From contig JBNKUM010000085.1 of NCBI GenBank assembly GCA_050298595.1, positions 83,971-147,970 of the forward strand: a DNA stretch of 64,000 nucleotides, written 5' to 3'. The translations under genes were made by a program, and so were the position numbers. Below the pieces are notes generated by a model. It did not search any database and was not told the origin of the DNA. It saw only the letters and a program-made list of their open reading frames with translations. Positions 4,007 through 55,033 of the stretch are shown here, one piece after another. This stretch comes from Gammaproteobacteria bacterium (GTDB lineage Bacteria > Pseudomonadota > Gammaproteobacteria > GCA-001735895). Position 1 is the stretch's first letter; each line of letters starts with the position of its first letter.

Positions 4007-4170
4007 ACACCTCGGATATTAGTAAACTATTTCAAAAAAACCACATTATTTGTCTGAGAACTGACATAGGTCAATTAAATTATTTTAAGGGGTCGGAACC
4101 CTTAATTGCCGAGTGTGACCACTTGATATACACTATAGCATCATTTACATATCAGCAAGAGGATTACGCG

Positions 4171-18117: not shown

Positions 18118-18133
18118 ATTCCTCTCCTGTTCG

Positions 18134-35962: not shown

Positions 35963-36454
35963 ATGACCACATCTCTTTCAATTATCTGTGCTATGGATCA
36001 GAACCGGCTGATTGGCAAGAATAATGCCTTACCCTGGCACCTGCCTGCTGACCTGGCATTTTTTAAGCAAAACACCCTGGGGAAACCGATTGTGATGGGG
36101 CGCAAGACCTATGAATCGATTGGACGCCCCCTGCCCGGCAGGCAAAATATAATCATCACACGCGATGCTAATTACCGGGCCGAAGGTTGTGATTGCTGCT
36201 CAAGTATCGAAGCCGCGCTTGAGCTGGCCCGCGATCATGCTGAAGTGATGCTGATCGGTGGCGCAAGCCTCTATCAACAAACGCTGGAAAAGGCACAGCA
36301 CCTCTACTTAACTCGAATTCACTCAAGCTTTGAAGGCGACGCCTGGTTTCCAGAAATTAACCCTGATGACTGGAAGGAGATCTGGCGCGAAGACCACCGC
36401 TCGGATGAAAAAAATATATGCGATTTCTCTTTTGTTAAATATTCCAGAAAATAA
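35963..36454 (+). CDS. folA: Dihydrofolate reductase
   Basis: ISLIAAM-type N-terminus (LSIICAMDQNRLIGKNNALPW), GRKTYESIGRPLPGR. Confidence 0.85.
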   Translation: MTTSLSIICAMDQNRLIGKNNALPWHLPADLAFFKQNTLGKPIVMGRKTYESIGRPLPGRQNIIITRDANYRAEGCDCCSSIEAALELARDHAEVMLIGGASLYQQTLEKAQHLYLTRIHSSFEGDAWFPEINPDDWKEIWREDHRSDEKNICDFSFVKYSRK

Positions 36455-36522
36455 ACGACCAGCGCGCTTGGCTTATCAACATTGATTTACTAGAATGACC
36501 GTCCATTTAATGAGAGAGCGCT

Positions 36523-36807
36523 ATGGAGCTAGATAAAATGGAAAGCCGCACCTACATTATTGGTAGAGAAGGGCATATATATCTGAACGACAAAACTGTC
36601 AGTAAGCAGCATGCAGAGATTCAGATTATGAACGGCGAAATATACCTGAGAGATCTTGAGTCCACCAACGGTACCTATCTGGTAAAAAATAATCGTCTGG
36701 TTGCTTTTGCTGAAGGTTATGTACAGCTTAACCAGGCAATAGTTATTGGAAATAAGCAATACACGATTAAGAAATTACTGGAAATGGCCGGGGCTATCGC
36801 TGCCTGA
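36523..36807 (+). CDS. Stand-alone FHA-domain protein
   Basis: 94 aa. YIIGREGHIYLNDKTVSKQHAEIQIMNGEIYLRDLESTNGTYLV is a textbook FHA core (GR...SR.HA...DL.S.NGT). Confidence 0.7.
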   Translation: MELDKMESRTYIIGREGHIYLNDKTVSKQHAEIQIMNGEIYLRDLESTNGTYLVKNNRLVAFAEGYVQLNQAIVIGNKQYTIKKLLEMAGAIAA

Positions 36808-36845
36808 TTGAGGACATTATTCACCCTTTCGCAACACCTGTTCAG

Positions 36846-37127
36846 CTAGCTGATCGCTTTTTTCTGGCTTCTTTCATCGATAAAAACAGCAGAAGAATCA
36901 ACAGTTTCAACGACTCTCATCTCCATCTCTTCTAACTCACCAGGCGCCAGATAGTAGACCATATCAATTTGATGTCGGATATATCTTGATGGTAATCGTG
37001 TTAATGAATAACAGGCGACATCGAGAAAAAACTCTTCATCATGCTGTGGGTATTTGTCCACCAGAGTTTGACTAATATACTCAAACACCAGATTTTCGTA
37101 ATAATTATACAAACTGGCAAAATTCAT
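36846..37127 (-). CDS. ComFB-like small protein (putative cyclic-nucleotide receptor family)
   Basis: 93 aa. NYYENLVFEYISQTL...FLDVACYSLTRLPSRY pattern resembles the ComFB domain (PF10719). Last gene of the GAF-FecR operon. Confidence 0.45.
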   Translation of the reverse strand: MNFASLYNYYENLVFEYISQTLVDKYPQHDEEFFLDVACYSLTRLPSRYIRHQIDMVYYLAPGELEEMEMRVVETVDSSAVFIDERSQKKAIS

Positions 37128-37143
37128 TCGACTTACCTCTTTG

Positions 37144-38184
37144 TTATAGCCCTAGTCCAAATAGCGCACCACCTATTAACCAGGGCCAGAGTCCATTTTC
37201 TTCTTCTGGTGGTTTTGCATTCTGGTAAATTTTTGATTCTGCTTCGTTCAGCAGCCCAGGAACTGGTTCTTGATTATCCATCTTCTGCACCTTGCCCCAG
37301 TCTGCCACAGCATATTGCCCCTGAGCAAGCTCTCCCTGCACACCTTCTTCATCTTTCAAAGTAATCGCCCCCTTCAGTACCGCCACATGCAAACGGCTGT
37401 CTTCAGATGCACTGTTTGCTGAGTGTTCACAGTCATTAACTTGACATAGCATTAGCACATAATCAGTGCCGCGTACGCCAATAGTCATGACTCCTGCACT
37501 AACCCGATAAATACTTAAGGGATTAGCCGCAATAGCCCCGGTAATTTTACGCAACCCCCCCTTGATTAGATCAATGATACTGCGGCTGCCTTTTTCAAAG
37601 GCTGACTTCATCACGTACTCAGTAATACGTACAGAACTATCCGTTTTTAAATACAACTTTGCACCATCAACCATATCTATAGCTACCGTACTATCTGTGG
37701 AAGTTTTTATCCTGTCACCTTCATATACCGGAGAGTTTTGCTGGAGTGCATTCTGCTTTCCATTTTTATCGGTAGCTATAACATAACCATTAACACCTTT
37801 GATGACGCCTACCTGGACAAATCGATTAACCGCATTGAGTTTAGCGGGTTTACCGGGTTCACGGAGTTCACGGAGTTCATGGATTTTTTTAATGGTAACC
37901 ATTTTTAACGATGACCCTACGATCAGTTGACCAGTAAAACTGTCAAACGCTTCAGGGTTAAACTCCTGTATCTTCTGTTTTATCTGCGGCCAGAGGGGCT
38001 TATGCTCCGCATATATCTGCTCCACCAGTTTATCCAGAGTTTGATCTGGCCCAACTCGCATAATTTGGCGTGAAGATTCTACAAATTCGTAATGAATTTC
38101 CTCTGCATTTAGCGGGGTAAGTAAACAAATAAACACCAGAAAAAATCCAAACCCCAGAACACTCCTGGGTAAATAATGAATCAT
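37144..38184 (-). CDS. FecR-domain protein (secreted/periplasmic, single FecR domain)
   Basis: N-terminal hydrophobic segment. FecR-type beta-sandwich (VYEGDRIKTSTDSTVAIDMVDGAKLYLKTDSSVRI). IKGGLRKITGAI...IGVRGTDY motifs shared with the FecR protein inside the TPS operon. Start overlaps the GAF gene. Confidence 0.6.
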   Translation of the reverse strand: MIHYLPRSVLGFGFFLVFICLLTPLNAEEIHYEFVESSRQIMRVGPDQTLDKLVEQIYAEHKPLWPQIKQKIQEFNPEAFDSFTGQLIVGSSLKMVTIKKIHELRELREPGKPAKLNAVNRFVQVGVIKGVNGYVIATDKNGKQNALQQNSPVYEGDRIKTSTDSTVAIDMVDGAKLYLKTDSSVRITEYVMKSAFEKGSRSIIDLIKGGLRKITGAIAANPLSIYRVSAGVMTIGVRGTDYVLMLCQVNDCEHSANSASEDSRLHVAVLKGAITLKDEEGVQGELAQGQYAVADWGKVQKMDNQEPVPGLLNEAESKIYQNAKPPEEENGLWPWLIGGALFGLGL

Positions 38185-38825
38185 TTTGGCTCTCCATCAA
38201 TAAAGGTTAATTTTTGCACGCATTCAAGTACCTGACTGGCCATCCTGCCTGCAACATGCAGAATATTCAAGTCATTGATATCAAATGCAGCATCCTGTTT
38301 GTGGTTGACTACTTCAATCGCGCCAACAACCTCGTCTTCGATAGTCACGGGAGTACACATCAGTGAAGATGTTTGGAAATTAAGGCGTTCATCGATTGAC
38401 GCTGACCATTGCTTAGAGGCATGAACGTCTTCAACGAGCAATGCCTCTTTAGTCTTTATCACATGCCCAACCAATCCAGTATCTAGTGAAATCCGGTGAT
38501 TAAGTAAGTGATCATGCGATTCACCAACGACCGCGACGAACTCTAATTCACTGGTTTCCTCATCGATGAGTATTAACGAACCATTTTCGGTATTACAGGC
38601 ATGCATCACCATCTCCAATAATTCATTGAGCAATTCTGGAAGCTCCAGATTTATACTCATCGAGTGGGTCCTGGTATCAAGCTCTGCCAGTACTCGAAAC
38701 GCCTGTTGATGCCTGGCAAGTTTTTTACTGACCTGCTGGTTACGCACTTTCAGCAGATCATTCTCATCCCGTAGCATCTGAATAATATCGCGCCGATTAA
38801 TTGCCATATAGATAAATCCATTCAC
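38181..38825 (-). CDS. Coiled-coil + GAF-domain protein
   Basis: N-terminal coiled coil (LRDENDLLKVRNQQVSKKLARHQQAFRVLAELD). GAF fold (GSLILIDEETSELEFVAVVGES...GLVGHV...MCTPV...VGAIEVVN). Confidence 0.6.
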   Translation of the reverse strand: MNGFIYMAINRRDIIQMLRDENDLLKVRNQQVSKKLARHQQAFRVLAELDTRTHSMSINLELPELLNELLEMVMHACNTENGSLILIDEETSELEFVAVVGESHDHLLNHRISLDTGLVGHVIKTKEALLVEDVHASKQWSASIDERLNFQTSSLMCTPVTIEDEVVGAIEVVNHKQDAAFDINDLNILHVAGRMASQVLECVQKLTFIDGEPK

Positions 38826-38959
38826 AAAGTGTGCATAATATGATAGAGGACGACCGCTAAAAACACCAATCGTGTTAACATACTGAATTTAAAGGCCAGA
38901 CGGTTAGGTTATTCGACAAAATGCATTATTTCTTGCGTAAGAGGAATGCGTTTAATCAA

Positions 38960-39808
38960 TTAACGGGAAGATTTTCTTTCTGATGTGGCAGTTTTTTCGC
39001 AGGAAAGACTAAACCAGCGTGGTGTTTTCTTATCGATACGTAGAGCTGTGATGCGCCCGCCCCATAAGCAACCACTGTCAATAGCAAAACAACCGCCATA
39101 CTGATTGGTGGGCAAGGTTGACCAGTGACCGAAAGCCAGGCGGTTATGCTTGATAGCAGATTGACTAAATTCAAACCAGGGATTGACATCGCTGGAGTTA
39201 ACTTTTTGCGGCGCACCTTTGATTTCAAGATCAAGGCTGCCATCATTTCGCAGGTAACGCATGCGGGTAAATACGTTGGTAATAAAGCGCAGCCTTTCCA
39301 TTCCGTCGAGTTGATCTGACCAAATTGCGGGATGATTACCGTACATTTCCCTTAGAAAATCGACTATGCGTTCTCCACGTAACGCTTGCTCAACTTCCCG
39401 TGCGCACTCATAAGCCTGGGTAAGACTCCATCCAGGGTAAATACCCGCATGAACCATGGCAAAATTCAACCCAATATCGTAATGCAGAAGCGGTCTGAAC
39501 CTGAGCCACTCAATCAATTCCTTGCAGTCATCAGCTTGCAGAATCTGGTTTAAGCTATTACTTGATTTAACTTTGACCTGCCCATAATAGAGTGCCAGTA
39601 AGTGCAGATCATGGTTACCCAATACGCTGACCGCGCTATCGCCCAAAGAGCGCACAAAACGTAATGTTTTCAAGGACTGTGGCCCACGATTGACCAGATC
39701 TCCGACGAACCATAATTGATCCGTTTGCTGATCATAATTTATCGCTTTGAGCAGCTTTTTCAGGTTGCTGTAACAACCCTGTACATCGCCAATCACATAA
39801 ACAGCCAT
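38960..39808 (-). CDS. apaH: Bis(5'-nucleosyl)-tetraphosphatase (symmetrical)
   Basis: MAVYVIGDVQGCYSNLKKLL...GDLVNRGP...GNHD, canonical ApaH. Confidence 0.9.
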   Translation of the reverse strand: MAVYVIGDVQGCYSNLKKLLKAINYDQQTDQLWFVGDLVNRGPQSLKTLRFVRSLGDSAVSVLGNHDLHLLALYYGQVKVKSSNSLNQILQADDCKELIEWLRFRPLLHYDIGLNFAMVHAGIYPGWSLTQAYECAREVEQALRGERIVDFLREMYGNHPAIWSDQLDGMERLRFITNVFTRMRYLRNDGSLDLEIKGAPQKVNSSDVNPWFEFSQSAIKHNRLAFGHWSTLPTNQYGGCFAIDSGCLWGGRITALRIDKKTPRWFSLSCEKTATSERKSSR

Positions 39809-39815
39809 CTCAGCC

Positions 39816-40433
39816 TCATTCAGCAGACGCTGATTTTTTTAATTCAATATAACGAAACCAGCCATTTGCCAGGGCTGGCTCATCACTTACTAATGTGAGC
39901 TGATTGCATTTAGCCAGTAAATGCTCAAATACCACATTGGTTTTGGTGGCAAAATGTCTAATCAGAGGATTGATCAAACGACGTCCTAATGCCAGCTGTC
40001 CGGGACGTAAGAATTTATCGACAATCAGTAATTGCCCGCCAGGCTTTAATATTCTGCTAGCTTCAGTCAGGGCCTTAAATGAGTCGGGAACGATGGCGAG
40101 TATTAAATGCATGATGACCGCATCAAAGGCATTATCTTCAAACGGCAATTTCATTGCATCCGCCTGTTGAAGCGTGAGATCAAGATCATCACGCTGGGCA
40201 GCTCGGTTACGTGCTTTAGCTAACATCGCAGGTGTTATATCAATGCCAGTATAGCTGGCTTTTGGGTTGAGAAAAGGTATATCCAGCCCGGTACCGATAC
40301 CGACAATTAACGTGTCTGGGGTACCCTGATGATTCAGACGTAGCAGGCTCTTCTGCCTTAGCGGCCTGGTTGCACTATCTACCATGACATCGTAAATGGG
40401 TGCCAGTAACGTATAGCTGTGTTTTAGCGCCAC
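39816..40433 (-). CDS. Class I SAM-dependent methyltransferase
   Basis: [10 protein letters not shown] (motif I), ...AVIMHLIL..., PGGQLLIV. Inserted between apaG and apaH. Confidence 0.65.
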
Positions 40434-40804
40434 TAATGTAATACTCTGGGTGTAGATAATACAAACTCATCAATAGTCGCATCGAATAACTTGCCATCTT
40501 CAGCCCGCATTTCATAACTGCCGCGCATGGTACCTATAGAGGTTTCCAGCATGGTTCCAGAGGTATACACAAACTGTTCACCCGGTTTTAAATGTGGTTG
40601 CTCACCTACCACACCTTCTCCGCGAACCTCCTGCACCTTTTGGTTGGAGTCGGTGATTATCCAGTGCCTGTTGATTAATTTCGCCGCCTGGTCACCCTTG
40701 TTGACAATAGTGATGGTATAGGCAAATACATAATAATCCTGCTCTGGATTGGATTGCTCTTCGATATAATGGGTTTGCACATCAACCTGTATGTTATTCA
40801 TCAA
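40433..40804 (-). CDS. apaG: ApaG (DUF525) protein
   Basis: 123 aa, ...[46 protein letters not shown]... ApaG family. Confidence 0.85.
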
Positions 40805-40818
40805 TCGCTCCTTAGTCG

Positions 40819-41613
40819 TTAAACGGCTACCGGTGCCTTGATATGCTCATGACATTGATACCCCAGTAGCTCAAAATCATCGTATTTAAAATTATATATA
40901 TCCTTAACATCTGGATTGAGACGCATTTCTGGTAATGGAAATGTGTCACGCGATAACTGCAGATCAGTTTGCTGCAGATGGTTAGAATACAGGTGTGCAT
41001 CACCCAGAGTATGCACAAACTCTCCCACTTTTAAATCGCATACCTGCGCAACCATCATCAGCAACAAAGCATAAGAAGCTATATTAAACGGCACACCCAG
41101 GAAAATATCCGCACTTCGCTGATATAATTGGCAGGATAGTTTACCTTCGGCGATATAAAACTGAAAAAAGGCATGGCAGGGCGGTAAAGCCATATTGTCC
41201 AGCTCACCCACGTTCCATGCACTGACAATCAAACGTCTTGAATCTGGATTCGTCTTAATCTGTTCTATCAATTGAGAGATCTGATCTATATGCCGACCAT
41301 CTGCCGACGTCCATGAGCGCCACTGGGAGCCATATACAGGCCCGAGATTACCTTCTTCATCCGCCCATTCGTCCCAGATACTGACGCCATTCTGTTTCAG
41401 ATAATCGATATTAGTATCACCTTTCAGGAACCAGAGTAGCTCATGAATAATCGACCGTAAGTGCAACTTTTTAGTCGTTACTACAGGAAAACCTTCTGCC
41501 AGGTCAAAACGCATCTGGTAACCAAATACCGAACGCGTACCGGTACCTGTGCGGTCTGTTTTTTTTACACCATGATCGCGTACATGACGCATGAGTTCGA
41601 GATATTGCTGCAT
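40819..41613 (-). CDS. thyA: Thymidylate synthase
   Basis: [38 protein letters not shown]...PCH... canonical ThyA, 264 aa. Confidence 0.95.
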
Positions 41614-42473
41614 TAATTCGCCCTTCTTCTATAGGCTAGCGTGATAATAATTATACCCAGCAAAAGCATAGGCAAAGATAACAGCATACCCATTGTTAAC
41701 CAGCTTGTATCTATCAGATAACCTAGATTTGCGTCTGGTAGCCGAATCGTTTCAACCAATGACCTGAACAGGCCATAACCCACTAAAAACAACCCCGAAG
41801 TGGCCATTAAAGGGCGCGGTCGAGAAGTATAGAGCCATAATATTATGAACAATACAAAACCTTCCAGAATCATTTCATAAAGCATTGAGGGATGCCGCGG
41901 TGTAGAACATAGTGCGCCTGCAAAATCAGAATAGCGTTGAGGCGGGTATTGATCGCAGGGCAATTTCATCGCCCAGGGTAAGCTAGATGGCCCGCCCCAT
42001 AACTCACCATTGATAAAATTACCCAAACGTCCGGCCGCTAGCCCCAATGGTGCCAAAGGCGCAATAAAATCTGTAATCTGAAAAAAACTACAACCGAGTT
42101 TCCTACGGTACACCTCCATCGCTACCATTACGCCGAGAAAGCCCCCATGAAAAGACATCCCGCCCTTCCAGATTTTGAACAGATAAAGCGGGTTAGCTAG
42201 AAAGCTATCCAGATTATAGAAAAACACCGAACCAATTCGACCGCCTAACACAACTCCAATAGCACCATAGAAGATCAGATCATCCACTTGCTGAGGAGAA
42301 ATTAAGCCATCAGAGGTCACTGCCCGTTTTTTCCCCAGCCACCAGGCTGAAGCAAAAGCGCATACATACATCACGCCATACCAGTGAATTTGGAGTGGGC
42401 CAAACTCGTACGAGAATATATTGAACGGACCAAGTTCAAGTAAAACTGGGTCTATAGAGGGGTAAGCAATCAT
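41613..42473 (-). CDS. lgt: Prolipoprotein diacylglyceryl transferase
   Basis: Lgt signature (HGGFLG, YGxxR). Overlaps the thyA start as in E. coli. Confidence 0.9.
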
Positions 42474-42580
42474 ATAACGGGGAATTCTCTTGGAATACTT
42501 TAATAGCGTTGATTATGCCTTATTCAACTGCGTTTCTCATCTTCAATAGGATAAAAACTTTAGATCAATGAAGCCCAACT

Positions 42581-42943
42581 TCAGAAGAACAATACCAGCA
42601 TCCAGGTGAGAACCACTATGGAAATAGCGATAAATACCGCAGCCGAACCCATGTCCTTCGCACGGCCAGAAAGCTCATGCTGCTCTCCACCAAAACGGTC
42701 AACAACAGCTTCTATGGCAGAATTTAACACTTCAACCAACAGTAATAGCAACACACTAACAACCAGCACTACCTTTTCAACGCCACCTTCTCCCAGATAA
42801 AGTCCGAGCGGGATCAGTACCAGAGCCAACATTAGCTCCTGACGAAATGCCTCTTCATTTTTATACGAAGCCTTCAACCCCTGCCAGGAGTAGACCGTTG
42901 CCTTGAGAATTCTATTGAGACCAGTATTGCCGCTGTCTGCCAT
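42581..42943 (-). CDS. dgkA: Diacylglycerol kinase
   Basis: 120 aa, 3 TM, ...EAFRQEL...VEVLNSAIEAVVDR... DgkA family. Confidence 0.85.
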   Translation of the reverse strand: MADSGNTGLNRILKATVYSWQGLKASYKNEEAFRQELMLALVLIPLGLYLGEGGVEKVVLVVSVLLLLLVEVLNSAIEAVVDRFGGEQHELSGRAKDMGSAAVFIAISIVVLTWMLVLFF

Positions 42944-42950
42944 GTTTATC

Positions 42951-44141
42951 CTACTGCAGTTGTGAGTTTCGGTGCTGCAGTATAAACATTTCTATCAATC
43001 GATGCAGTTGCTCAAAATTTAGCAGATGTAAGTTTGCGAGAGTTATTTTTAAATATTGATCTAGAAGCTGGATTCCCAATCTAATCGGCAGCTCACTCAG
43101 GCTGACCAATAACTGATCAATAAACTTGCTGTTAGCCATTTCATTTTCTATCAGTATCACACAGCGCCCTGCTGCCTCGGGTACCTCTTCAGTTTTTATA
43201 CCCGCCTGATTAAATTGTTGCCTCAGGTAGCTAGCCATAACCATAGATTGAACAGCCTGTTGTTGAAGCGCAGAAAAACCTTGCATACGGAAATAAATCA
43301 AACAATGTAAGGTAGCCTGAGGATCTAGCGAAGCGTCGGATAGCATGCCAACCGATAAGGGATTTTCTGCCAGCGTTTTCCATTGATAGGTTTCATCATT
43401 CTTACCCGCCATAGGAACAGGCAGATAACCTGAAAATTTAGCATTCGATAAGACTGCATTGCAGCCTTTATCCAGGCCGCATATATAAGCCACATCCAGA
43501 TGCAGGATGTCGGCCCTGAGCCATTCGGAAGCTTCACTTAGTGCCAATAGATATTGTCCTGATCCATCTAAATATAAAGGGATATCGAGTTGATCCAGCT
43601 TACCCCTGATGGACTCCAGATAGTTAACATTATCATCAATACCTGGCAGTGACACCACCAGCGCAGCACAATCATCATTGAGAAAATCTGTAATATTTTC
43701 CGGATTTAAAAACCTTACTCTCAGATTCAACTCTTTGGCCACATCAGCAACCTCATCCAGCCCCTTCATCAATACGATCTGATTTCTCTGCCGCCTGTTT
43801 TTCTGTTGATACTTAATCACCATAGACAGACAAGCAAAGATAGCCATGCGGCGATTTAATGCTGCCAGTGATACAGAAGGGTAACCGGTAAATACAGCTA
43901 TACGTTGTTGTAAATCAAAAATTGTCGATAGCACACCCTGTTGCCTCGAATCAGGAATCTTTGAGTTATAGCCTTCCGGACATATTTTATTAGCTATGCG
44001 AGATGCCGTTAATATTGCATTACTCTCTAGTGCAATCGACTGATACAACGCATTCATCTGCTCACCCGAATTCGAACAAAGCGATTCGATATCTTTTATG
44101 CCACGCAGTTGATCAGCAGAAATTTCAGGTAATAAATTCAT
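42951..44141 (-). CDS. Highly divergent glycine dehydrogenase subunit 2 (GcvPB)-like protein, probably non-catalytic
   Basis: Colinear resemblance to GcvPB: IPLYLDGSGQ ~ VQLYYDGANL; ILHLDVAYICGL at the position of the PLP-Lys motif HLNLHKTF; YLPVPMAG ~ YLPVPLVE. The Gly-rich PHGGGGPG loop is absent. Confidence 0.4.
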   Translation of the reverse strand: MNLLPEISADQLRGIKDIESLCSNSGEQMNALYQSIALESNAILTASRIANKICPEGYNSKIPDSRQQGVLSTIFDLQQRIAVFTGYPSVSLAALNRRMAIFACLSMVIKYQQKNRRQRNQIVLMKGLDEVADVAKELNLRVRFLNPENITDFLNDDCAALVVSLPGIDDNVNYLESIRGKLDQLDIPLYLDGSGQYLLALSEASEWLRADILHLDVAYICGLDKGCNAVLSNAKFSGYLPVPMAGKNDETYQWKTLAENPLSVGMLSDASLDPQATLHCLIYFRMQGFSALQQQAVQSMVMASYLRQQFNQAGIKTEEVPEAAGRCVILIENEMANSKFIDQLLVSLSELPIRLGIQLLDQYLKITLANLHLLNFEQLHRLIEMFILQHRNSQLQ

Positions 44142-44171
44142 GAATTAGTCATCGCATCTAATGCCGATATT

Positions 44172-45488
44172 TCATGTGAATTTTGGTTTAACGGGGCAAC
44201 CCGCAGTAGAAAGGTTTTTAACCACGGTAGCCATCTTTTGTACAAAGCGATCAATCATCGATAGATCGTGTTGATCAGTACAGTGAATCAATAAACAGTT
44301 CTCCAGCTCAGGGAATTCATCCCCCAAAGGGTAGCCAGCCAGGATATTGTGACCAGCCAGAATTTGCAGGGCACGGTTCAGGTCGATGCTATCGAAATGG
44401 ATTACACACTCATGGGTAAACGCTGATTCAAACTTCAAGCTGACAGCAGGAATCTGGACTAATTTCTCTATCAGACTGGTTAAATTTTGCTGCGCCAGTT
44501 TACCTGCTTGCTGGATTTGATTAGCAGATTGGCAGGCGAAAAACGACTGGATAGTCATCAACTCGTTTATTAATAAGCCAGGCTCTATAGTTTTATCTAG
44601 CCTAGCTTTATCTACATTGGCTTTTTCTGAGTTAGCAGAATCAGCTCGCAGCGTAAGCGCATTACCTTTCCTGCTCAAAGGGAAGCCAAGGGGTTGTAAA
44701 TCGCACAAGGTATAATCAATATATTCACTCAACTGGGCAGGAGGTTTCAGATAAGTAAGTGATAAAGCATCAGACAGCACGATGGTTTTAATGCCGTATT
44801 GTTGCGCCCAATCTGCAACGTCAGCGACATTTTCCAGTACACCGAAAAAATTTGGATAAGGCAATAAGATAGCCAACAGGTCATCAGCAACCAACTCTTC
44901 TAGCTGTGACCGGGAAACCTGCCCTGTTAGCGTATCAAAACCGATAACTACAGTCTCTATACACTGGTATTTTAACTGTGTTCGTAGCGCCGAACGCAGG
45001 CCTGGCGGCATGCTTGCTGCGAGCAAAACCTTTTGTCTTATCCCTGTGCCAGCCTGCTGCTCATGACTATACAGCTCAAGCAGTAAATCTTTTAACACCT
45101 GGCTTAGACACTCACCCAGCACTTTAGCATTTTCCATGCCTACGAGTTGCGCAAGTTTCGACTCGACCCCCTTTTTTATTTCCTGATAACTTTCCAGTGA
45201 GGCCCCACAAGCTGGGTATGGCATTAATCGAGAGATTGAATCCAGGGCTTGAAGCGCAACCGGTCTGTAGAAATCATAAGATCCTGCAGCAAGAAAGTTC
45301 ATACCAGCTCCATCCCGAGACAATAGCTCAACACAGGAAAGAACGAGATCTTTTTCTGTTTCAACAGGGCGAATTTGTTCTGCTGGCAACTTCAATCTGG
45401 GCAGTGATATACCGCTTTCAGATGCCAGCTTCTGCAGTTGATTTTCGGTTAACATAAAGGCATATATTGTCAGTGTGTTAAGAAGCAA
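44172..45488 (-). CDS. Highly divergent glycine dehydrogenase subunit 1 (GcvPA)-like protein
   Basis: FLAAGSYDFYRPVALQAL ~ FLGGGxxxHxVPxVVQAL. MPYPACGASLESYQ at the position of the conserved TAYTPYQPEVSQG. The alternative start at MLTENQ would give 427 aa. Confidence 0.45.
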   Translation of the reverse strand: MLLNTLTIYAFMLTENQLQKLASESGISLPRLKLPAEQIRPVETEKDLVLSCVELLSRDGAGMNFLAAGSYDFYRPVALQALDSISRLMPYPACGASLESYQEIKKGVESKLAQLVGMENAKVLGECLSQVLKDLLLELYSHEQQAGTGIRQKVLLAASMPPGLRSALRTQLKYQCIETVVIGFDTLTGQVSRSQLEELVADDLLAILLPYPNFFGVLENVADVADWAQQYGIKTIVLSDALSLTYLKPPAQLSEYIDYTLCDLQPLGFPLSRKGNALTLRADSANSEKANVDKARLDKTIEPGLLINELMTIQSFFACQSANQIQQAGKLAQQNLTSLIEKLVQIPAVSLKFESAFTHECVIHFDSIDLNRALQILAGHNILAGYPLGDEFPELENCLLIHCTDQHDLSMIDRFVQKMATVVKNLSTAGCPVKPKFT

Positions 45489-45493
45489 ACATA

Positions 45494-45517
45494 AAAGCCC
45501 TGAAAACAGGGCTTTTT
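45494..45517 (-). terminator. Hairpin/terminator between tpsA and the GcvPA-like gene
   Basis: AAAAGCCCTG-aaaa-CAGGGCTTTT, a perfect 10-bp stem with a U-run on the minus strand. Confidence 0.5.
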
Positions 45518-45547
45518 GTTAATCGACATGCCATCTGAATAGATCAA

Positions 45548-48500
45548 CTACTTACACACCAGCCTGGGAGCGCGCTTTTTCTCGTCATCTTCTTCATCCT
45601 CAGTTTCAATACTGGCAACCTTGTCAACAAAGCTCATTGTCTTAACCATCTGTTGATGATCTAGCTCTCCACTATCAAACAACGTTTCAAGCAGATTCGA
45701 AACTTTATCCATATCTTCATTAGAAACCACAACCGTATCTTTAAATGTAAACGTCCCCTGATTGATTATTCTGAAAGGATTATTGATTTGTAAAATAGAA
45801 GTATCGGGAGAAAACCAGTTAACCGTCCCGGTAGGTGTGATCAGCCAGTCAGTACCTAAAACTCCACTAACCAAATCTACGCGACCAGAAGTTGTCAAAC
45901 CTGTACCATTAATAGTTCCCGTATCCCACAACATGTCGCCCGCATAGTTTAGGTTATTAGCTTTAAGCGTCCCTCCTACAAGTTCTATCCTGGCAATTTG
46001 GAGTGGCGTATTGGCAACTAAAGACGACCCTGATGAAATCGATATACTTCCTCCACCGGTCAAGCTTGACATAGCATTAACAGTTAACTCAGTGTTATTT
46101 AGAGCTAAAACTTTACCTTGCTGCACCTGTATTGATGAAGCCTGGACAGCAACTAACAGAGGATTTTGTGTATTGCTACCTATAAAACTACCCCCATCGA
46201 CGATTACGGATGTAGATGCAGAAATCACCAGATTCCCTTCAGCCTGAATTTCGCTACTACCCGACATCGTCACGCTCGTTGGCAAGACAGGAATGTTCTG
46301 CACTCTGGAAACCACTCCATCAACCAACTCCCAGTTTATGGTCGTATCGTAAACAAGGGGATGAATATCTACAGCAAACTCAGAAGTATTGTTTAAGGAT
46401 AAAAGTCCTGAACCTAAAAACTGGGCGTTACTGCTGGCTGATGACAGGGAGACACCATCTGATAAGGAAAGTTGTGCGCCATTCGCCCAGGACATAATGC
46501 CTTTATTGTCTATAGAGCCTGTACCGGTAAAGACATTAGTTCCACTACTGGCATCTATCGCAAACAATGCATTGTTCACCAGATTGCCATTTATCTGAAA
46601 GGGAGTACCTACACTGGTTTGAATTTCACCCCAGTTAACAGCGTCAGCAGACAGGGTGCCCTGATCAAGTTTAAGCGTTGCACCTAAATTATATAAAACA
46701 CCTGTACCCGTTCTGGACACTAAGGCATCGGATGCAGAAATGGCTAACCCACCACTACCATTGAACGGATCAAGTATAAAAGCATTGCCACTTATATCAA
46801 GGCTACCACCAGCGCCTACTTTGATCTGGCCATGCGCCTGAATTCCTCTAACAGCAGCAGTAGAGGTGATATCAACAACTGGGGTAGTTGTTCCATCAAT
46901 AAATACATCCGTGCTTGAATCAGGCGCCACCGTCGCAGTAAGCCCAGTAGAGAGATCCATCCAGTTATCTAGATCACTCCAACTGGTTGGAGAAGTAGAT
47001 GATAACCCCGTCCATTGATAGATATTACTGGTATCTATGCTACCAATTGTATAACTGGCCGTATCAGCAATAACTGATCCATAATCAACAGTGCCTGCTG
47101 AAGTTGTCGCAATAGGGTCAACAATGGTGTCAAAGCCACTCCCTGAAAAACAACCAGTACCCGTGCAACCAACTACCGATACAGTGTTGCTAGAACTATC
47201 AGCAGCTAGTACAGCTGAGCTATCTTGCCAGTTCAAAATCAAATCACCACCATTAATAGCAACAGTATTCGCACTCACATAACTTGACACCATGCCATCT
47301 GATGCCGCCAGGACTGAATATAAGCCCCCAGAATTAAACACTAGATCACCATTAATAGTTAATGTGCCTGGGCTTGTTGAGTCATCTCCACCAGCGATCA
47401 CGCCACCATTCACGGTTACACTGCTGTTTATAGCAGCCCATCCAGAACTACTGAGACCTGAACCAGGTCCGAGCTCAAGCACTCCTCCAGTTAAAGTCAG
47501 CGTATTGTTATCCTGTATGTCGATCCATCCTGGATTTTTGAAATTTATAAACTGAGTATCTATAGTCGAGATAGAAGTAGTAAAGCTATTAAGATTAATA
47601 TTCCCCTTATTATAAAACTGCCCTGTACCTGTGATACTGGCATTCTCCATATTGATATCACCGCCATTGGTCAACATTGAAGTGGCGTCTAAATCTAGTG
47701 TTGTAAACTGCATATCGATCGAATGTCCCTGCTGCACATTCCAGCTGGTATTTTGTAGTTTTAGAGCACCGCCTCCGGTTATTGATGTATTACCATTTAC
47801 CATTAAGCTACCAGCATTGGTAGCAAGATCTACATTAAAACTTGCGGTTGAAGCAAACGTTTTAAAGTTAACCAGACCTGAGCCATCATTATCTATGTCT
47901 GGATTCAATATAAGGTTTAATGCACCGGTGCCTGTTGCAGAGATAGTGAGATTACTAGCAGCTGCATCAAAAATAATGTCATTGTGTGCATTTAACGTAA
48001 GTGAAACAGCGCTACTCGATAGAGAATTGATATCCGCCAGGATGGTAATATCACCTGCTTGACTATTACCCCCAGCTGTAGCTGTTGAAACAGTGACATT
48101 TGTGCCTGCGTTGAGAGCAGCTTCTATAGATGCGACACTCAAATAAGCACTGTCACCCGTTGAAATAAAATCAGGGTCACCTGTGATGAGAGCATCTGCA
48201 GTCGAACTAATTGTTATATTATTTGGATCAATCAACCACTCACCTGCATTACCATTAAGTGCCGAGGCATCCGGCACCGATGTAATATCCAGATAGTGTT
48301 TACCAGAGGTTTCTATAAACCCACCATCACCACTAACCGCACCACCACGCGCAGTTACTTCACCATGTACGTGCACATCTTTCTCTGCAAATACGATGAC
48401 TTTGCCTCCATTTCCTGTCGTGTCGGCATCAGCATTGACACTGGCACCGGCAGCTATCGTGGTTGAGCTTGCATTGTGGATCTCGGGATTCAACCCCTGC

Positions 48501-49414
48501 TGATCACCACCGATAAGAATCTCTCCACCAGCAGTATCACCAGATGCATTGATATTCGCACCCTCATCAATGTTGACTGTATCGCCAAGTATCTCGATAT
48601 ACCCGCCCTGAATACCTGAGGCGTCTACGCGGCCACTAACCTGATTGGTAGCTTTGGCAACCAGGCTGATACTTCCATCAGCATTCTGCACCAGACCTCC
48701 AGCACGAATTGAACCACTGTGCTTCAAGGCCCCTGCAAACAAACTGGCACTACCCTGATTCGCTAAAATTTTACCCAGATTGGTCACCGTGTTTTCACTT
48801 CCAGTAACTTCAAACTGTATGGCCGGATTCTCCAGACTGCTGATGGTAATCGATTGCCCTGCCGCCAGTATGATATTTCCATTATCGACTTCGATAACGC
48901 CACCGTTTTCGATATTCGGTGCGATCAATACAATATTGCCATTATCTCCTGCATGGATATAGCCCTGATTGCTAATTCCAGCTGAGCTATCACCTTCAAA
49001 CTTTAGATTTCCATTCAGGTAATCACTATCTGTTATATTCAATGTGGAAGCGAAAAAACCGGCTGTATTGATTTGCGCACCAGCCCCAACAAGGAGGCCA
49101 TGTTGATTAATCAGAAATACCTTACCATTTGAATTCAAATTACCCAGCAACTGGCTAGGGTTATTGGATATCACGCGATTTAATACGGAACTCGCCGCAG
49201 AGGGCTGAATAAAATTGGTGGTTTGTCCGGCGCCGATATTGAACGATTGCCAGTTGATGATGGCATTATTACTGTTCGTAACATTTAAAACATTTACACT
49301 GGGATTAGAAAAGGTAGCCGAGCCGTGAACAACCTGCCCACCCGCAGGGTTGGCGTTGGCCATTTGACTACTCAGAATCAGACTGATGGTAAAAGCTAGC
49401 GTATTGTATTTCAT
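45548..49414 (-). CDS. Two-partner-secretion exoprotein (TpsA; filamentous-haemagglutinin-type beta-helical protein)
   Basis: Signal peptide then TPS domain (NPAGGQVVHGSATFSNP...AIINWQSFNIGAGQTTNF...SAASSVLNRV...NGKVFLINQHGLLVGAGAQIN). About 1100 aa of Gly/Asn/Thr/Ser-rich beta-helix repeats. Acidic C-terminus. Confidence 0.8.
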   Translation of the reverse strand: MKYNTLAFTISLILSSQMANANPAGGQVVHGSATFSNPSVNVLNVTNSNNAIINWQSFNIGAGQTTNFIQPSAASSVLNRVISNNPSQLLGNLNSNGKVFLINQHGLLVGAGAQINTAGFFASTLNITDSDYLNGNLKFEGDSSAGISNQGYIHAGDNGNIVLIAPNIENGGVIEVDNGNIILAAGQSITISSLENPAIQFEVTGSENTVTNLGKILANQGSASLFAGALKHSGSIRAGGLVQNADGSISLVAKATNQVSGRVDASGIQGGYIEILGDTVNIDEGANINASGDTAGGEILIGGDQQGLNPEIHNASSTTIAAGASVNADADTTGNGGKVIVFAEKDVHVHGEVTARGGAVSGDGGFIETSGKHYLDITSVPDASALNGNAGEWLIDPNNITISSTADALITGDPDFISTGDSAYLSVASIEAALNAGTNVTVSTATAGGNSQAGDITILADINSLSSSAVSLTLNAHNDIIFDAAASNLTISATGTGALNLILNPDIDNDGSGLVNFKTFASTASFNVDLATNAGSLMVNGNTSITGGGALKLQNTSWNVQQGHSIDMQFTTLDLDATSMLTNGGDINMENASITGTGQFYNKGNINLNSFTTSISTIDTQFINFKNPGWIDIQDNNTLTLTGGVLELGPGSGLSSSGWAAINSSVTVNGGVIAGGDDSTSPGTLTINGDLVFNSGGLYSVLAASDGMVSSYVSANTVAINGGDLILNWQDSSAVLAADSSSNTVSVVGCTGTGCFSGSGFDTIVDPIATTSAGTVDYGSVIADTASYTIGSIDTSNIYQWTGLSSTSPTSWSDLDNWMDLSTGLTATVAPDSSTDVFIDGTTTPVVDITSTAAVRGIQAHGQIKVGAGGSLDISGNAFILDPFNGSGGLAISASDALVSRTGTGVLYNLGATLKLDQGTLSADAVNWGEIQTSVGTPFQINGNLVNNALFAIDASSGTNVFTGTGSIDNKGIMSWANGAQLSLSDGVSLSSASSNAQFLGSGLLSLNNTSEFAVDIHPLVYDTTINWELVDGVVSRVQNIPVLPTSVTMSGSSEIQAEGNLVISASTSVIVDGGSFIGSNTQNPLLVAVQASSIQVQQGKVLALNNTELTVNAMSSLTGGGSISISSGSSLVANTPLQIARIELVGGTLKANNLNYAGDMLWDTGTINGTGLTTSGRVDLVSGVLGTDWLITPTGTVNWFSPDTSILQINNPFRIINQGTFTFKDTVVVSNEDMDKVSNLLETLFDSGELDHQQMVKTMSFVDKVASIETEDEEDDEKKRAPRLVCK

Positions 49415-49442
49415 AATGATGGCTCCTCTGGTCTACAGTAAA

Positions 49443-50909
49443 TTACTGCAGACGGCATTCAAACTCCTCTTTATCACTACCTTTGGCACCAAACAAATTA
49501 ATCTTTTTCTGCATTTTCAGTGACAACTGTGAAGGCACAGGGATCTTGTCAAACTTCTGGAAAGGCGGAACAAAGTTCAGGCGTATGGTCTTCCCGGCAA
49601 GCCCTGCTAAACCAGCCTCACCCTTACCCAGATTAACAACACTGCCATCGACACCCTCAACCGCAACATCACCGTCTCGCACATTAACATATAACCCCGG
49701 CTCAATATTCTGTCTATCTGAGCCACTAAACAGATCATCTCTAATTGTGATTCGATCAGGTCTGGGCGCATTACCCATGGTACGAAGATGGACCGGAAAA
49801 TCAGGTATGATCACCGGTTTGGTGAATCCATTTTTGACAAATGCTGCCTTACCATTTTCCAGTAGCATTTTGCCGCCTTCAAATTGCAACTCTATGGCAC
49901 CACTCCACACCCTGGCATACATGCCACTGCCGCTTAAGGCATAAGCTGGTTTCAAAAAGAATTGCAACAGTTTTGCAACCACCGTTTCACTCAGTGGGTC
50001 CTGCAATGCCGTGTTGTCCACACAATCACCATCACAGGCCAGGTCAAAGCCAGTACCACGGATACCTATGGTTGCTGTTGGCGTTGCCACTCGATAGGAG
50101 CGCTCATTCAAGCGCCCAATAGCGCCAGTGATCAGACGCAAGCCACCTCGAATAAACCTTAAAAATGCATTATTCTCTGCTGGCACTTCAGGCTTATAGT
50201 AATGTTCTTCAATCTTAAAGGCTGAAGACGGACTCATCGTGATACGGCTTTTATCGTTAAACACTAAAACAGCAAACGATTTAATTCCGGTTTGTATTTG
50301 ATCAAGCTCGTATACTGCTGCACCAGTCGATAAGGGGCGTGATTTATTATTAGCGTCCAGTGCACTGGCCTTACCCTGCATTAAAGCAATACGGCCGATA
50401 ACCTTTGATTCATTCTGCGAATTCTTATTCAGTGCTCGATTTTCTTCATCACACTCAGCACTTTCACACAGTCGGGCGTCAAATTCAGTACCCCGAATAC
50501 CGATGGTGGCTACTCGAGTATTGATACGAAAAGCACTGGGGCGACTTTTACTGATGAGACCTGTTATGGCTCGAAAGCCGCCTCGAATCAAATTCATCAA
50601 TGCGCTTTCACTACCCTTAGTCGTATTTACGTCCTCAATTTTAAACGTTGTATTAGGTCGAAGCGTCATGCGCGTACCGTCTTCCAGTTTGATCACGGCA
50701 AAGCTGCTAGTGCCTGTATTCAAAGTTTCACCTTTATACAATGACCCACCTTTGCCCAGAATCTGGAGAGCATCATTGCCAACCTGCCCTGTTAGCACTC
50801 CTCGGGTATAAGCCACCTCACCTACTTCAGTCGCGGCAAATACAGAACCTTGCAGGCACAGTAAAAATGAGAAAAACAAACTACGGTGAATCATGCTTTT
50901 TCTATCCAT
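49443..50909 (-). CDS. Secreted tandem FecR-domain protein encoded between tpsB and tpsA
   Basis: Signal peptide. Two FecR-type domains (FAVIKLEDGTRMTLRPNTTFKIED...IGIRGTEFD and FAVLVFNDKSRITMSPSSAFKIEE...IGIRGTGFD). Cys pairs CESAECDEE and CDGDC. RGGxRxITGxI motifs. Confidence 0.7.
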   Translation of the reverse strand: MDRKSMIHRSLFFSFLLCLQGSVFAATEVGEVAYTRGVLTGQVGNDALQILGKGGSLYKGETLNTGTSSFAVIKLEDGTRMTLRPNTTFKIEDVNTTKGSESALMNLIRGGFRAITGLISKSRPSAFRINTRVATIGIRGTEFDARLCESAECDEENRALNKNSQNESKVIGRIALMQGKASALDANNKSRPLSTGAAVYELDQIQTGIKSFAVLVFNDKSRITMSPSSAFKIEEHYYKPEVPAENNAFLRFIRGGLRLITGAIGRLNERSYRVATPTATIGIRGTGFDLACDGDCVDNTALQDPLSETVVAKLLQFFLKPAYALSGSGMYARVWSGAIELQFEGGKMLLENGKAAFVKNGFTKPVIIPDFPVHLRTMGNAPRPDRITIRDDLFSGSDRQNIEPGLYVNVRDGDVAVEGVDGSVVNLGKGEAGLAGLAGKTIRLNFVPPFQKFDKIPVPSQLSLKMQKKINLFGAKGSDKEEFECRLQ

Positions 50910-50917
50910 AGCCTGCC

Positions 50918-52465
50918 TCAGAATCGGTAAATCAAGTTAAAGTGGGCCTTATCGTCACCATCCTGGTTGATCGTGGCATCAGGACCACCACCTTTATTGA
51001 TGACAGCATAATCAAGCGCAACACTTAGCTGTTCTTTCCAGCTCCAGCGTAACCCGACTCCATAGGAAGAAAGATCGTAATCTCCACTGTCGTTAAATTT
51101 GACCTTAGCCTGATCAATAAAAACCAGATAGCGCATATTTGCAAAGGCCGGGGTCCAGATTTCAAAAGAAGTTTGATAGCCGCTATCACCGATTACGGAA
51201 CGTTCTTCAAAACCACGCAGCGTAGAACTACCACCCACACCAAATTGTTCGCCTGAAATCAGTAAATCACTACTACTTTGCCCACTTAAACCCGCGTGCA
51301 AGAGCCAGTCTTTAGAGAAAATCAGATCATAAGCAAGGTTGTATCGTATAGCAGTCCAGTCATTTTTGGCGCCTGTACGGAGCAGTTCATAATCCTCATC
51401 ACTATTGTTACTGCCAGAATCAATATTCAAATCATAGAAAAAATCACCACTAATGGAGCTTGATTTGGCTGTATAGGTAAAACCATAACCCAGTTCTAGA
51501 GGAAAACTCCCTACATCGGCATTTGATACGTTCCCATTAATATCAATCTCATTCTCGAAGAGTTTATTTTGAAACCCAACAGACCACTGGTGATTAAAGT
51601 TGGTATCGGTCAACATCGGACGCGAATAAGTAAAACCAAATACCGAGCCCTTTCCGGTAATAGCTACACCTCCACCCACTTCACCAGAATTGACCTCCGA
51701 ATCTGAAAATATAAAATCCAGATTGGCACCATGTGAATATAGCGGTATATGGTAGCTCAGACCAAACTGATTGGTGGCATCCGGGTCTTCTGGAGCTACG
51801 GTCAAGGTTGCGGTTATCGTGTGATCGCGGTTGAATAGATTGCCATTCTGATATCCCAGAGTACTGCGGAATTCACTGGTATCTTTGCTACCAGTATTAT
51901 CCAGCGTCAGGAAAAAAAGCTGCGGGTTACGATCATTGACGGTTAAATTAGCATCAATGGTATCTCCCTCGTCACCTTCCTTAAACTTAAGCACCATATT
52001 CTTGGAAGCGTGATTATTAGCAAGTTTCAAAGAACGCGACAATTCCCTGGTATTTGGTGTACTACCAACACTTAACTCAGGAAGAGAGCTACGGATATTC
52101 CGTTCATTAAAGAACTTATTACCCGATATATTTATCGCCCCGATAGTAAAATGAATAACATTCAACTCGACGGTACCAGAGATTAATTGCTGAGGAGGCA
52201 GGGACACTCGGTGAAAACTATAACCCTGTTTAATAATTTCCTGTTCCAGGGCATCAGCCGCAGCAGATAACCCATCCAGACCATAATGCTCACCTAGATA
52301 GGATTGCAGTACTTTTTGCGCTTTGTCCGCTATTGGGTTATCACCAGTGACGTCAAAGCTAGAAACCGTAAAACGCATTGGCGTATAAGTAGTTTGGGCA
52401 TACCCTACCATTGGCAACAGAGTAACAAAAAATAAAACAAAGGCACTTCCCTGAGGTATTCGCAT
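50918..52465 (-). CDS. TpsB outer-membrane transporter (ShlB/FhaC/HecB family, POTRA + 16-strand barrel)
   Basis: Signal peptide at the internal start MRIPQGSAFVLFFVTLLPMVGYA. POTRA-region motifs. C-terminal beta-barrel ending in ...FNLIYRF (terminal aromatic residue). Confidence 0.8.
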   Translation of the reverse strand: MRIPQGSAFVLFFVTLLPMVGYAQTTYTPMRFTVSSFDVTGDNPIADKAQKVLQSYLGEHYGLDGLSAAADALEQEIIKQGYSFHRVSLPPQQLISGTVELNVIHFTIGAINISGNKFFNERNIRSSLPELSVGSTPNTRELSRSLKLANNHASKNMVLKFKEGDEGDTIDANLTVNDRNPQLFFLTLDNTGSKDTSEFRSTLGYQNGNLFNRDHTITATLTVAPEDPDATNQFGLSYHIPLYSHGANLDFIFSDSEVNSGEVGGGVAITGKGSVFGFTYSRPMLTDTNFNHQWSVGFQNKLFENEIDINGNVSNADVGSFPLELGYGFTYTAKSSSISGDFFYDLNIDSGSNNSDEDYELLRTGAKNDWTAIRYNLAYDLIFSKDWLLHAGLSGQSSSDLLISGEQFGVGGSSTLRGFEERSVIGDSGYQTSFEIWTPAFANMRYLVFIDQAKVKFNDSGDYDLSSYGVGLRWSWKEQLSVALDYAVINKGGGPDATINQDGDDKAHFNLIYRF

Positions 52466-54320: not shown

Positions 54321-54322
54321 TA

Positions 54323-54865: not shown

Positions 54866-55033
54866 TGTGTAAATTCAACTTGTTCGTATAATTTTCGCAT
54901 TCTATCACCCGGGTATGCTTTTCTCATTAGTACCAGGCCTGAAGTGGCTCTGTTTAATGATAAATCAGAATCCTGATGATTATGGATTATAATCAGCTGT
55001 TGACAGTTAATCTTTCATCCCCAAAAATGCGCT

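Follow-up and report, generated by a model that had tools for sequence, protein, structure and literature searches.

Organization of the Locus

We analyzed a 64,000-nucleotide stretch of DNA from a bacterium assigned to the Gammaproteobacteria (assembly GCA_050298595.1, contig JBNKUM010000085.1, positions 83,971–147,970; hereafter the window, 64 kb). Between an operon for two-partner secretion (TPS) and the gene dgkA, and in the same direction as both, the minus strand carries the two open reading frames (ORFs) reported there by the initial annotation, whose products resemble the alpha (GcvPA) and beta (GcvPB) subunits of the split form of the glycine decarboxylase P-protein; we refer to them as PA-like and PB-like (Table 1). 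The comparisons described below firmly establish that the family is a selectively maintained, two-subunit derivative of the P-protein that is free of pyridoxal phosphate (PLP) and non-decarboxylating, and that the most constrained element of the pair is a new cysteine-containing peptide at the C terminus of the alpha-like subunit. Loci or lineages of relatives are designated by L-codes (L004, L012, and so on) and homologous proteins by P-codes.

Gene order in the window clade is constant: shlB-fecR-tpsA-(terminator)-PA-like-PB-like-dgkA-lgt-thyA-apaG. In the window, 92 nt separate the tpsA stop codon from the PA-like start, 30 nt separate PA-like from PB-like, 7 nt PB-like from dgkA, and 107 nt dgkA from lgt. 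The PA-like and PB-like genes adjoin in every locus, at distances from a 30-nt gap down to a 4-nt overlap (L022), and in four lineages a further gene lies between them (see below). The sizes first given for the two proteins were 438 and 396 residues, of which the latter stands. The 438-residue ORF begins at a TTG codon (45488) inside the tail of the upstream hairpin and is probably too long: since every homologue starts at an ATG 11 codons further downstream (ML[ST]..), the true PA-like protein is probably 427 residues long.

Table 1. Features of the PA-like/PB-like locus (window coordinates)
Feature	Position	Strand	Basis or remark
GcvPA-like (alpha-like) pseudoenzyme subunit, 427 aa	44172..45455	-	profile and Foldseek matches to GcvPA 9a73_A, 1wyt_A; dN/dS 0.25
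GcvPB-like (beta-like) pseudoenzyme subunit, 396 aa	42951..44141	-	profile and structure matches; dN/dS 0.28
LMPYPACGASLESYQ, degenerate remnant of alpha active-site loop TPYQPE(I/V)SQG	45183..45227	-	alignment; unconserved in family
AGHN patch (H369-N370), C-terminal domain of PA-like	44346..44357	-	invariant in tail-bearing members
PA-like C-terminal tail VVKNLSTAGCPVKPKFT	44175..44225	-	family-specific; core (G/A/P)CPVKPKF
Former PLP-lysine strand of PB-like, DILHLDVAYICG	43476..43511	-	Y219 at lysine position; GGGGPG loop after strand deleted
Intrinsic terminator after tpsA: 10-bp stem, 4-nt loop, T-rich tail	45493..45516	-	folding and relatives
dgkA (diacylglycerol kinase)	42581..42943	-	last gene of PA-like/PB-like/dgkA unit in window clade
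TpsA, TPS-domain exoprotein, 1288 aa	45548..49414	-	contextual
TpsA C-terminal motif EKKRAPRLVCK	45551-45583	-	invariant in clade

Homology and Fold

Judged by profile comparison, the homology of the pair to the split P-protein is real, though far under the family cut-offs. PA-like matched the NCBIfam GcvPA model with an E value of 3.6e-35 and 121.7 bits (cut-off 364) and the Pfam GDC-P family with 48.8 bits, above the cut-off of 26. The corresponding values for PB-like were 3.4e-11 and 42.5 bits against NCBIfam GcvPB (cut-off 441) and 13.3 bits against GDC-P, below the cut-off of 26; both subunits fall short of the equivalog cut-offs of the split P-protein, with scores 3–10 times lower. A profile built from 15 PB-like sequences hit 1wyt_B, the beta subunit of Thermus thermophilus, with an E value of 4.5e-21 over residues 57–315.

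AlphaFold2 models were obtained with a predicted local distance difference test score (pLDDT) of 76.6 and a predicted template modeling score (pTM) of 0.75 for PA-like, and with 82.9 and 0.82, respectively, for PB-like. In Foldseek searches the best matches of the PA-like model were the GcvPA structures 9a73_A (4.9e-25) and 1wyt_A (2.2e-22), and that of the PB-like model was GcvPB 1wyt_B (3e-17), with 1wyu_B also at the top. The colinear homology to GcvPA and GcvPB that had been proposed from the sequence is thereby borne out at both the profile and the fold level, and the pair has the fold-type-I fold of GcvP together with adjacent alpha and beta genes.

Loss of Catalytic and Cofactor-Binding Residues

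Alignment of PB-like with eleven canonical GcvPBs and a solved structure places the sequence HLDVAYICG where the PLP-lysine motif HLNLHKTF is expected, with Tyr219 at the position of the Schiff-base lysine. Across the PB-like family this position is occupied by Tyr, His, Ala, Gln, Leu, or Asn, and no conserved lysine was found near it in the family alignments. The PHGGGGPG loop is deleted in PB-like, and no family member has kept the motifs that bind the PLP phosphate and ring (GAHGE, AHGTNP, and PHGGGGPG), all of which have been replaced or deleted. Also lost from PB-like are GSCTMKYNP, TNPNT, HPPT.YFPL, and the C-terminal R.DE..AAR extension. Most core members keep Q68, D192-G193, D211, H214, LPxP, and P.SIG. 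The Asp-Gly pair D192-G193 aligns with the canonical DGAN motif, and by analogy with fold-type-I enzymes D192 would be the ligand of the PLP ring nitrogen; distant members lack D192, D216, and C221. Two borderline proteins look like evolutionary intermediates, namely P0067, which reads HFNLHNTF and has no GGGG loop, and P0072, which has kept the lysine and lost AHGTNP.

In PA-like the loop TPYQPE(I/V)SQG has become LMPYPACGASLESYQ, a replacement that is itself unconserved in the family, and a block of ~30 residues containing TREQHIRREKATSNICTNQ is deleted; PA-like has neither the canonical alpha loop nor the TREQHIRREKATSNICT block. The alpha REQHIRREKATSNICT block and the active-site loop are lost family-wide. 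No lysine is invariant in either protein across the family alignments, and those of the PA-like tail vary (K423 is Gln in P0003, K425 is Arg in P0012).

The canonical alpha half of the P-protein is already a lysine-less PLP fold with a glutamine at the lysine position (PMC7259800), so the scaffold evidently tolerates a dead site. In the human GLDC-type enzyme the N-terminal (alpha) half is likewise lysine-less and is kept as the structural partner of the active half; there a single dead half leaves the enzyme functional, whereas here both halves are dead, and the complex therefore cannot be a glycine decarboxylase. Among the window ORFs covered by the scan (part of all) and within 10 kb in the relatives, no gcvT, gcvH, or gcvP turned up, and Rfam detected no glycine riboswitch in the window, its sole hit being a 6S RNA.

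The initial annotation had described the pair as degenerate, with eroded motifs in both subunits, and as pseudoenzymes on a fold-type-I GcvP scaffold. The erosion holds throughout the family, and the pseudoenzyme assignment is strongly supported by the fold and the lost catalytic signatures; with Tyr219 at the Schiff-base position in the structure-based comparison, the pair is not an ordinary split GcvP. The most informative features, namely the invariant cysteine tail at the C terminus of PA-like and the tpx gene that recurs between the subunit genes, escaped that description; they are treated next.

An Invariant Cysteine Tail on the Alpha-like Subunit

PA-like ends in a 17-residue extension without counterpart in canonical GcvPA (...TVVKNLSTAGCPVKPKF). 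It takes the form ...LSTA(G/A/P)CPVKPKF, and the peptide core is 100% conserved among sequences that are 32–91% identical overall. Synonymous sites in the tail vary freely, in the codons for Leu, Ser, Thr, Ala, Gly, Cys, Pro, Val, Lys, and Phe; the constraint therefore acts on the tail peptide, and constraint at the level of RNA or DNA is ruled out. The core (G/A/P)CPVKPKF is kept in the 58%-GC clade (L020, L028, and L030) and in L035, and L025 (64% GC, 28% identical overall) retains ...ACPVKPKF*. An intermediate form, ...GAACNLRPKGF, occurs in L021. In the AlphaFold2 model a helix (398–418) is followed by the tail as a low-confidence coil. Cys420 is present in all members except L022 and would, from the model, be an exposed candidate redox cysteine. 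The only other elements universal among tail-bearing members are the His-Asn of AGHN and a PEL motif, both in the C-terminal domain.

The L022/L023 lineage, in which the tail is NLSTDSRPVGPKRLA, offers an informative exception. L022 is changed at 12 of 64 highly conserved positions, against 2–5 in four control sequences, and nine of the twelve changes are H369D, N370S, E383Q, and six tail residues including C420R. Because L022 lost both together, the tail and the His-Asn patch appear, on the basis of this single lineage (L022/L023), to behave as one functional unit.

Several other explanations of the tail and its surroundings were considered and set aside. An intramolecular Cys/His metal site (H369, C387, C392, H396, and C420) would require residues of which distant members lack C387, C392, and H396, and the model puts C420 at the far end of a helix of 21 residues. 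The sequence STAGC recalls a lipobox, and lgt is nearby; the motif, however, stands at the C terminus of a protein that has no signal peptide, the pairing of lgt with thyA reflects general synteny, and insertions split lgt from the unit in L007 and L008. A serine-derived pyruvoyl cofactor at Leu-Ser-Thr is rejected on the grounds that the serine is missing in L025 and L035. As a separate observation, the tail resembles the C terminus of fused-type P-proteins (GDRNLVCSCPP) and also the N-terminal LIFE.S..GR arm of GcvPB; these are leads only, too short to test.

A Thiol Peroxidase Gene between the Subunit Genes

In four lineages (L006/L013, L024, L025/L026, and L035) a thiol peroxidase gene, tpx (166–167 codons), lies between the PA-like and PB-like genes. 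The inserted gene encodes a bona fide Tpx, scoring 170–233 bits against NF001808 (cut-off 123); the copies share 49–65% identity, and that of L006 has no resolving cysteine. L025 and L035, the most divergent members of the family, both carry PA-like-tpx-PB-like. Since the deepest branches share this arrangement, it is plausibly ancestral, and tpx may have left the operon several times.

Selection, Divergence, and Distribution

For the window and L012, the sole unsaturated pair, the ratio of nonsynonymous to synonymous substitution rates (dN/dS) was 0.25 for PA-like and 0.28 for PB-like, compared with 0.02–0.12 for ten neighboring genes; other measurable pairs gave 0.20–0.25. Selection on the pair is purifying and 3–5 times more relaxed than on its housekeeping neighbors. 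Both ORFs are intact in ~22 distinct loci, at identities down to ~22–34%, and the alignments contain 20 to 40 invariant positions. The family thus shows the combination expected of a PLP-fold pseudoenzyme, with catalytic residues lost, purifying selection, and new conserved elements.

Comparison of window positions 36000–55000 with L012 and L014 revealed mosaic divergence. Genes flanking the pair are 83–95% identical between the window and L014 (dN 0.03–0.10), whereas PA-like is 52% (dN 0.44) and PB-like 42% (dN 0.56) identical; the drop in identity starts in the 3′ end of tpsA and stops precisely at the start of dgkA. Against L012, dS in PA-like and PB-like (0.16–0.19) is the lowest of the whole region, with upstream values of 0.6–1.2. 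This looks like allelic or recombinational mosaicism, that is, exchange of a cassette, and by their shared pattern of divergence the two genes travel as one unit.

The family is tiny and confined to uncultured Gammaproteobacteria. When the PB-like profile was run exhaustively with HMMER against 1.84 billion cluster representatives, 19 proteins came out at E ≤ 1e-30; ~20 proteins were of the right length (360–410 aa), and canonical GcvPBs appeared from near 1e-25. A scan of GTDB species yielded 8 genomes, all labeled "MAG: Gammaproteobacteria bacterium" (MAG, metagenome-assembled genome), and a scan of Joint Genome Institute (JGI) metagenomes yielded 9 loci. In one locus (L024, 3504–4752) PA-like carries a 1-nt frameshift directly after AGH; the other 80 codons, with the tail GTVVKNLSTAACPVKPKFS among them, are intact in the next frame. 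A sequencing error would explain the frameshift, as would a very recent mutation; the fully intact downstream frame suggests the former.

TpsA, the Terminator, and dgkA

A tpsA gene precedes the pair in 15 of the 15 loci with visible upstream sequence, so that the co-occurrence with TPS loci is real. The encoded proteins range from 1288 to 3271 aa and share a C-terminal module that ends in (D/E)n-EKKRAPRLVC(K/R). The acidic run and this ending were seen in the window, L004, L006, L007, L008, L010, L011, L014, L022, L024, and L028–L030, the 58%-GC clade ending in RKKRFARLVCK. The C-terminal 60–100 residues are conserved across loci, and no Pfam toxin domain was recognized in the TpsA C termini. 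With the TpsA ending the locus has a second C-terminal peptide that is invariant and contains a cysteine, and the FecR-domain protein (49443–50909) likewise ends in a cysteine-containing sequence, ...EEFECRLQ. A reading of the locus as a polymorphic toxin system was rejected, the TpsA C terminus being conserved and without a Pfam domain, as was a role in anti-phage defense, since PADLOC flagged neither the pair nor TpsA, FecR, or ShlB.

The hairpin between tpsA and PA-like (AAAAGCCCUG-UUUN-CAGGGCUUUU with a U-rich tail) folds with −17.3 kcal/mol (z = −5.4). Most relatives have kept it (it is conserved in the window, L004, L006, L007, L014, and L019); in L012 a G:C pair has become U:A by compensatory change, and in L011 another GC-rich terminator stands in its place. 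The 10-bp hairpin of the initial annotation is thus present, but rather than the attenuator suggested there it is, by these comparisons, an ordinary conserved intrinsic terminator that closes the shlB-fecR-tpsA operon. In L008, ~eleven tandem CCAACTG heptamers (~5445–5525) take the place of the hairpin between tpsA and PA-like, an array that looks like a phase-variation-type repeat. By their spacing, PA-like, PB-like, and dgkA form their own tight unit. In ~18 loci dgkA follows PB-like at 2–24 nt; in L020 it comes after an inserted TPR/GT41 gene, and the downstream context of L025, whose upstream region is not visible, comprises PfkB and DUF1249 without dgkA. The region is broadly syntenic across the TPS-linked loci (Lgt 71–91% identical). 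Because the loci all belong to a single, moderately deep clade with this synteny, the constant adjacency of tpsA is weak evidence and may be inherited rather than functional.

Some further features of the surroundings may be recorded. In L007, L008, L016, L017, L019, and L031 the thyA position is occupied by a 283-aa protein ~33% identical to the 264-aa ThyA of the window, ThyA of other relatives being 81–98% identical to it; this looks like an in-place swap for a different ThyA type. A cluster of genes for a GAF protein, a FecR-domain protein (346 aa), ComFB, and an FHA-domain protein (window 37144–38825, minus strand) lies within a few kb of the TPS locus in all relatives and may be a signaling module related to the FecR of the TPS operon. 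Elsewhere the window contains a 6S (SsrS) RNA (55701–55883, plus strand, 101 bits), the only Rfam hit at gathering level, and an ORF for an IS200-like Y1 transposase (4123–4863, plus strand; PF01797, 1.6e-7). ORFs for an SNF2-related helicase and a DEAD/Helicase_C/RecQ_Zn_bind protein overlap by ~190 nt (16180–19762, minus strand) in the highest-GC stretch of the window (0.52–0.55 versus ~0.45), and could represent one disrupted gene or a foreign segment.

Discussion

The closest known system is the split GcvPA/GcvPB P-protein (T. thermophilus 1WYT/1WYU; NF001696, NF003346, PF02347), with which the pair shares adjacent genes, alpha then beta, the same fold, and the motifs PNFFG with Gln at the pseudo-lysine position (alpha) and QG, DG, LPxP, and P.SIG (beta). 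In contrast to it, the pair has no Schiff-base lysine, no loops for the PLP phosphate and ring, no alpha active-site loop, and no REQHIRREKATSNICT block; PB-like lacks the N-terminal arm (~45 aa) and the C-terminal extension (~40 aa), PA-like has gained the invariant 17-residue cysteine tail, and gcvT and gcvH were not found near the pair in the range scanned. No literature report was found of a P-protein relative with both halves dead yet selectively kept, of a lysine-less P-protein pair, or of a link between tpx and gcvPA/gcvPB. A region near the active site of the Synechocystis P-protein occurs in disulfide-bridged and open forms (PMC7259800).

The loss of catalysis with retention of a scaffold has a parallel beyond this family. 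The pair differs from the eukaryotic, single-chain antizyme inhibitor, whose partner is known, in its fold type (I rather than III), in having two chains, and in that its own partner is only putative. Antizyme inhibitor is a pseudoenzyme derived from ornithine decarboxylase that has lost PLP binding and catalysis and is conserved for partner binding. Peroxiredoxins pass oxidation on through thiol relays (Orp1-Yap1 and Tpx1-Pap1), and flexible C-terminal redox tails are found in thioredoxin reductase and MerA. The pair resembles these in the single conserved cysteine on what the model depicts as a flexible terminal peptide and in having, in four lineages, a Tpx gene in the same operon. It differs in that the acceptor would be a dead PLP enzyme with a redox role suggested by sequence and gene neighborhood, in that tpx lies outside the operon in most members, including the window, and in that no second cysteine partner was identified.

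The explanation we favor, with a confidence somewhat short of even, is that the pair is a PLP-free, dead heteromeric descendant of the P-protein whose cysteine tail takes part in a thiol- or peroxide-linked switch or relay with Tpx. The dead-enzyme part of this explanation is solid; the redox mechanism we infer. PA-like and PB-like most likely still assemble as a heteromer, given their adjacency, the 4-nt overlap in L022, their co-divergence, and the retained structural motifs. The functional center would have moved from the old PLP pocket to the C-terminal domain of the alpha-like subunit, with its His-Asn patch and tail, where Cys420, the single universally conserved tail cysteine, would be redox-active, and the complex may partner with Tpx in the switch or relay. 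That Tpx oxidizes the tail cysteine, so that the arm locks onto or unlocks from the His-Asn patch or the beta-like partner and thereby steers TpsA or DgkA, is a more specific proposal that we consider unlikely; its outputs would be the secretion or surface display of TpsA, or DgkA-dependent lipid recycling.

A number of observations weigh against a thiol-linked role with Tpx. Tpx is tied to the pair by gene neighborhood alone: tpx lies between the two genes in only 4 of ~22 distinct loci, and there is none in the operon of the window or elsewhere in its 64 kb. The L022 lineage survives without the tail cysteine. PB-like C221 and PA-like C387 and C392 are unconserved in distant members, and therefore no obvious disulfide partner is defined, and the AlphaFold2 monomer model is uninformative on where the tail docks. 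Finally, TpsA and DgkA are equally constant neighbors and could be the true partners.

In order of decreasing weight, the alternatives to a redox partnership with Tpx are an accessory role in TPS, a role with DgkA in envelope lipids, a residual novel enzymology, and decay. The pair might serve TPS as a cytoplasmic chaperone or regulator of TpsA, for example by reading its ...EKKRAPRLVCK end, or as an immunity-like neutralizer, a possibility we regard as somewhat unlikely. A TpsA ending in R(A/F)(P/A)RLVCK is encoded upstream in all 15 visible loci, from 37 to 58% GC, the junction of tpsA and PA-like never carries an insertion whereas other junctions do, and L014 shows a joint fall to 42–60% identity across the tpsA 3′ end, PA-like, and PB-like, between flanks at 83–95%. 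The position directly downstream of a TpsA gene and the divergence faster than the flanks also recall CdiA-CT/CdiI modules. However, CdiI genes follow a polymorphic C-terminal toxin domain with which they are co-transcribed, and here the TpsA C terminus is conserved and has no recognizable Pfam toxin or pretoxin domain, and a strong conserved terminator and 92–150 nt lie between tpsA and the pair. The two proteins are large (~400 aa), far exceeding known immunity proteins in size where CdiI is one small protein; they have no signal peptide, whereas TpsA is exported; the downstream context of L025 differs; and within a single syntenic clade (Lgt 71–91%) adjacency may simply be inherited. The immunity/chaperone pair put forward in the initial annotation fares poorly on these counts. 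It is quite improbable that the pair instead works alongside DgkA to keep membrane lipids or the envelope in balance, perhaps as a soluble partner that regulates the membrane kinase or docks with it. The close spacing of dgkA behind PB-like in ~18 loci, on the pair's side of the terminator and with ~100 nt or insertions before lgt, speaks for such a role, and Tpx prefers alkyl (lipid) hydroperoxides, which would fit a lipid theme; on the other hand, in L020/L032 a TPR/GT41 gene (699 aa) separates PB-like from dgkA, L025 has PfkB in the place of DgkA, L021 is without dgkA, and no sequence feature links the pair to lipids.

An enzyme of altered chemistry, which would use non-covalent PLP, a tail lysine in trans, or some other carbonyl cofactor, for instance a cysteine-derived pyruvoyl group, is very doubtful. 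Most core members do keep D192-G193, H214, and Q68, the former active-site strand is the best-conserved PB-like block in the core clade, and the tail contains lysines and a cysteine. Nevertheless, the loops that bind the phosphate and stack on the ring have been deleted or replaced, the tail lysines are not invariant (the K423 and K425 substitutions noted above), D192, D216, and C221 are lost in distant members, the absence of the LST serine from L025 and L035 leaves no serine-derived pyruvoyl, and dN/dS is 3–5 times that of the neighboring enzyme genes. The initial annotation had also raised a diverged decarboxylase with novel chemistry, and this is unlikely given that neither protein has an invariant lysine and that the loops for binding PLP have been deleted. 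Barely credible, finally, is a functionless relic of a redundant gcvPA/gcvPB duplicate in decay. Its fast divergence (42–52% identity where the flanks show 83–95%) and the PA-like frameshift of L024 would suit such a relic, but the selection analysis, which shows purifying selection, contradicts it: dN/dS is 0.2–0.28 in every measurable pair, both reading frames are unbroken in ~22 distinct loci, the alignments contain 20 to 40 invariant positions, the tail is 100% conserved amid free synonymous variation, and the intact downstream frame in L024 suggests a sequencing error.

The consequences for the family are practical as well as conceptual. JGI annotation names the pair "glycine dehydrogenase subunit 1/2", and metabolic reconstructions of these MAGs would on that basis wrongly credit their hosts with a P-protein. 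L022 is a clean natural experiment that points to the site of the new function, and the peptide (G/A/P)CPVKPKF together with the recurrent operonic tpx provides a testable handle on what may be a new thiol-relay module among uncultured Gammaproteobacteria of marine or sediment origin. If Tpx does act through the tail cysteine as a peroxide sensor, the pair would be the first bacterial redox relay from Tpx to a pseudoenzyme and the first fully non-catalytic P-protein.

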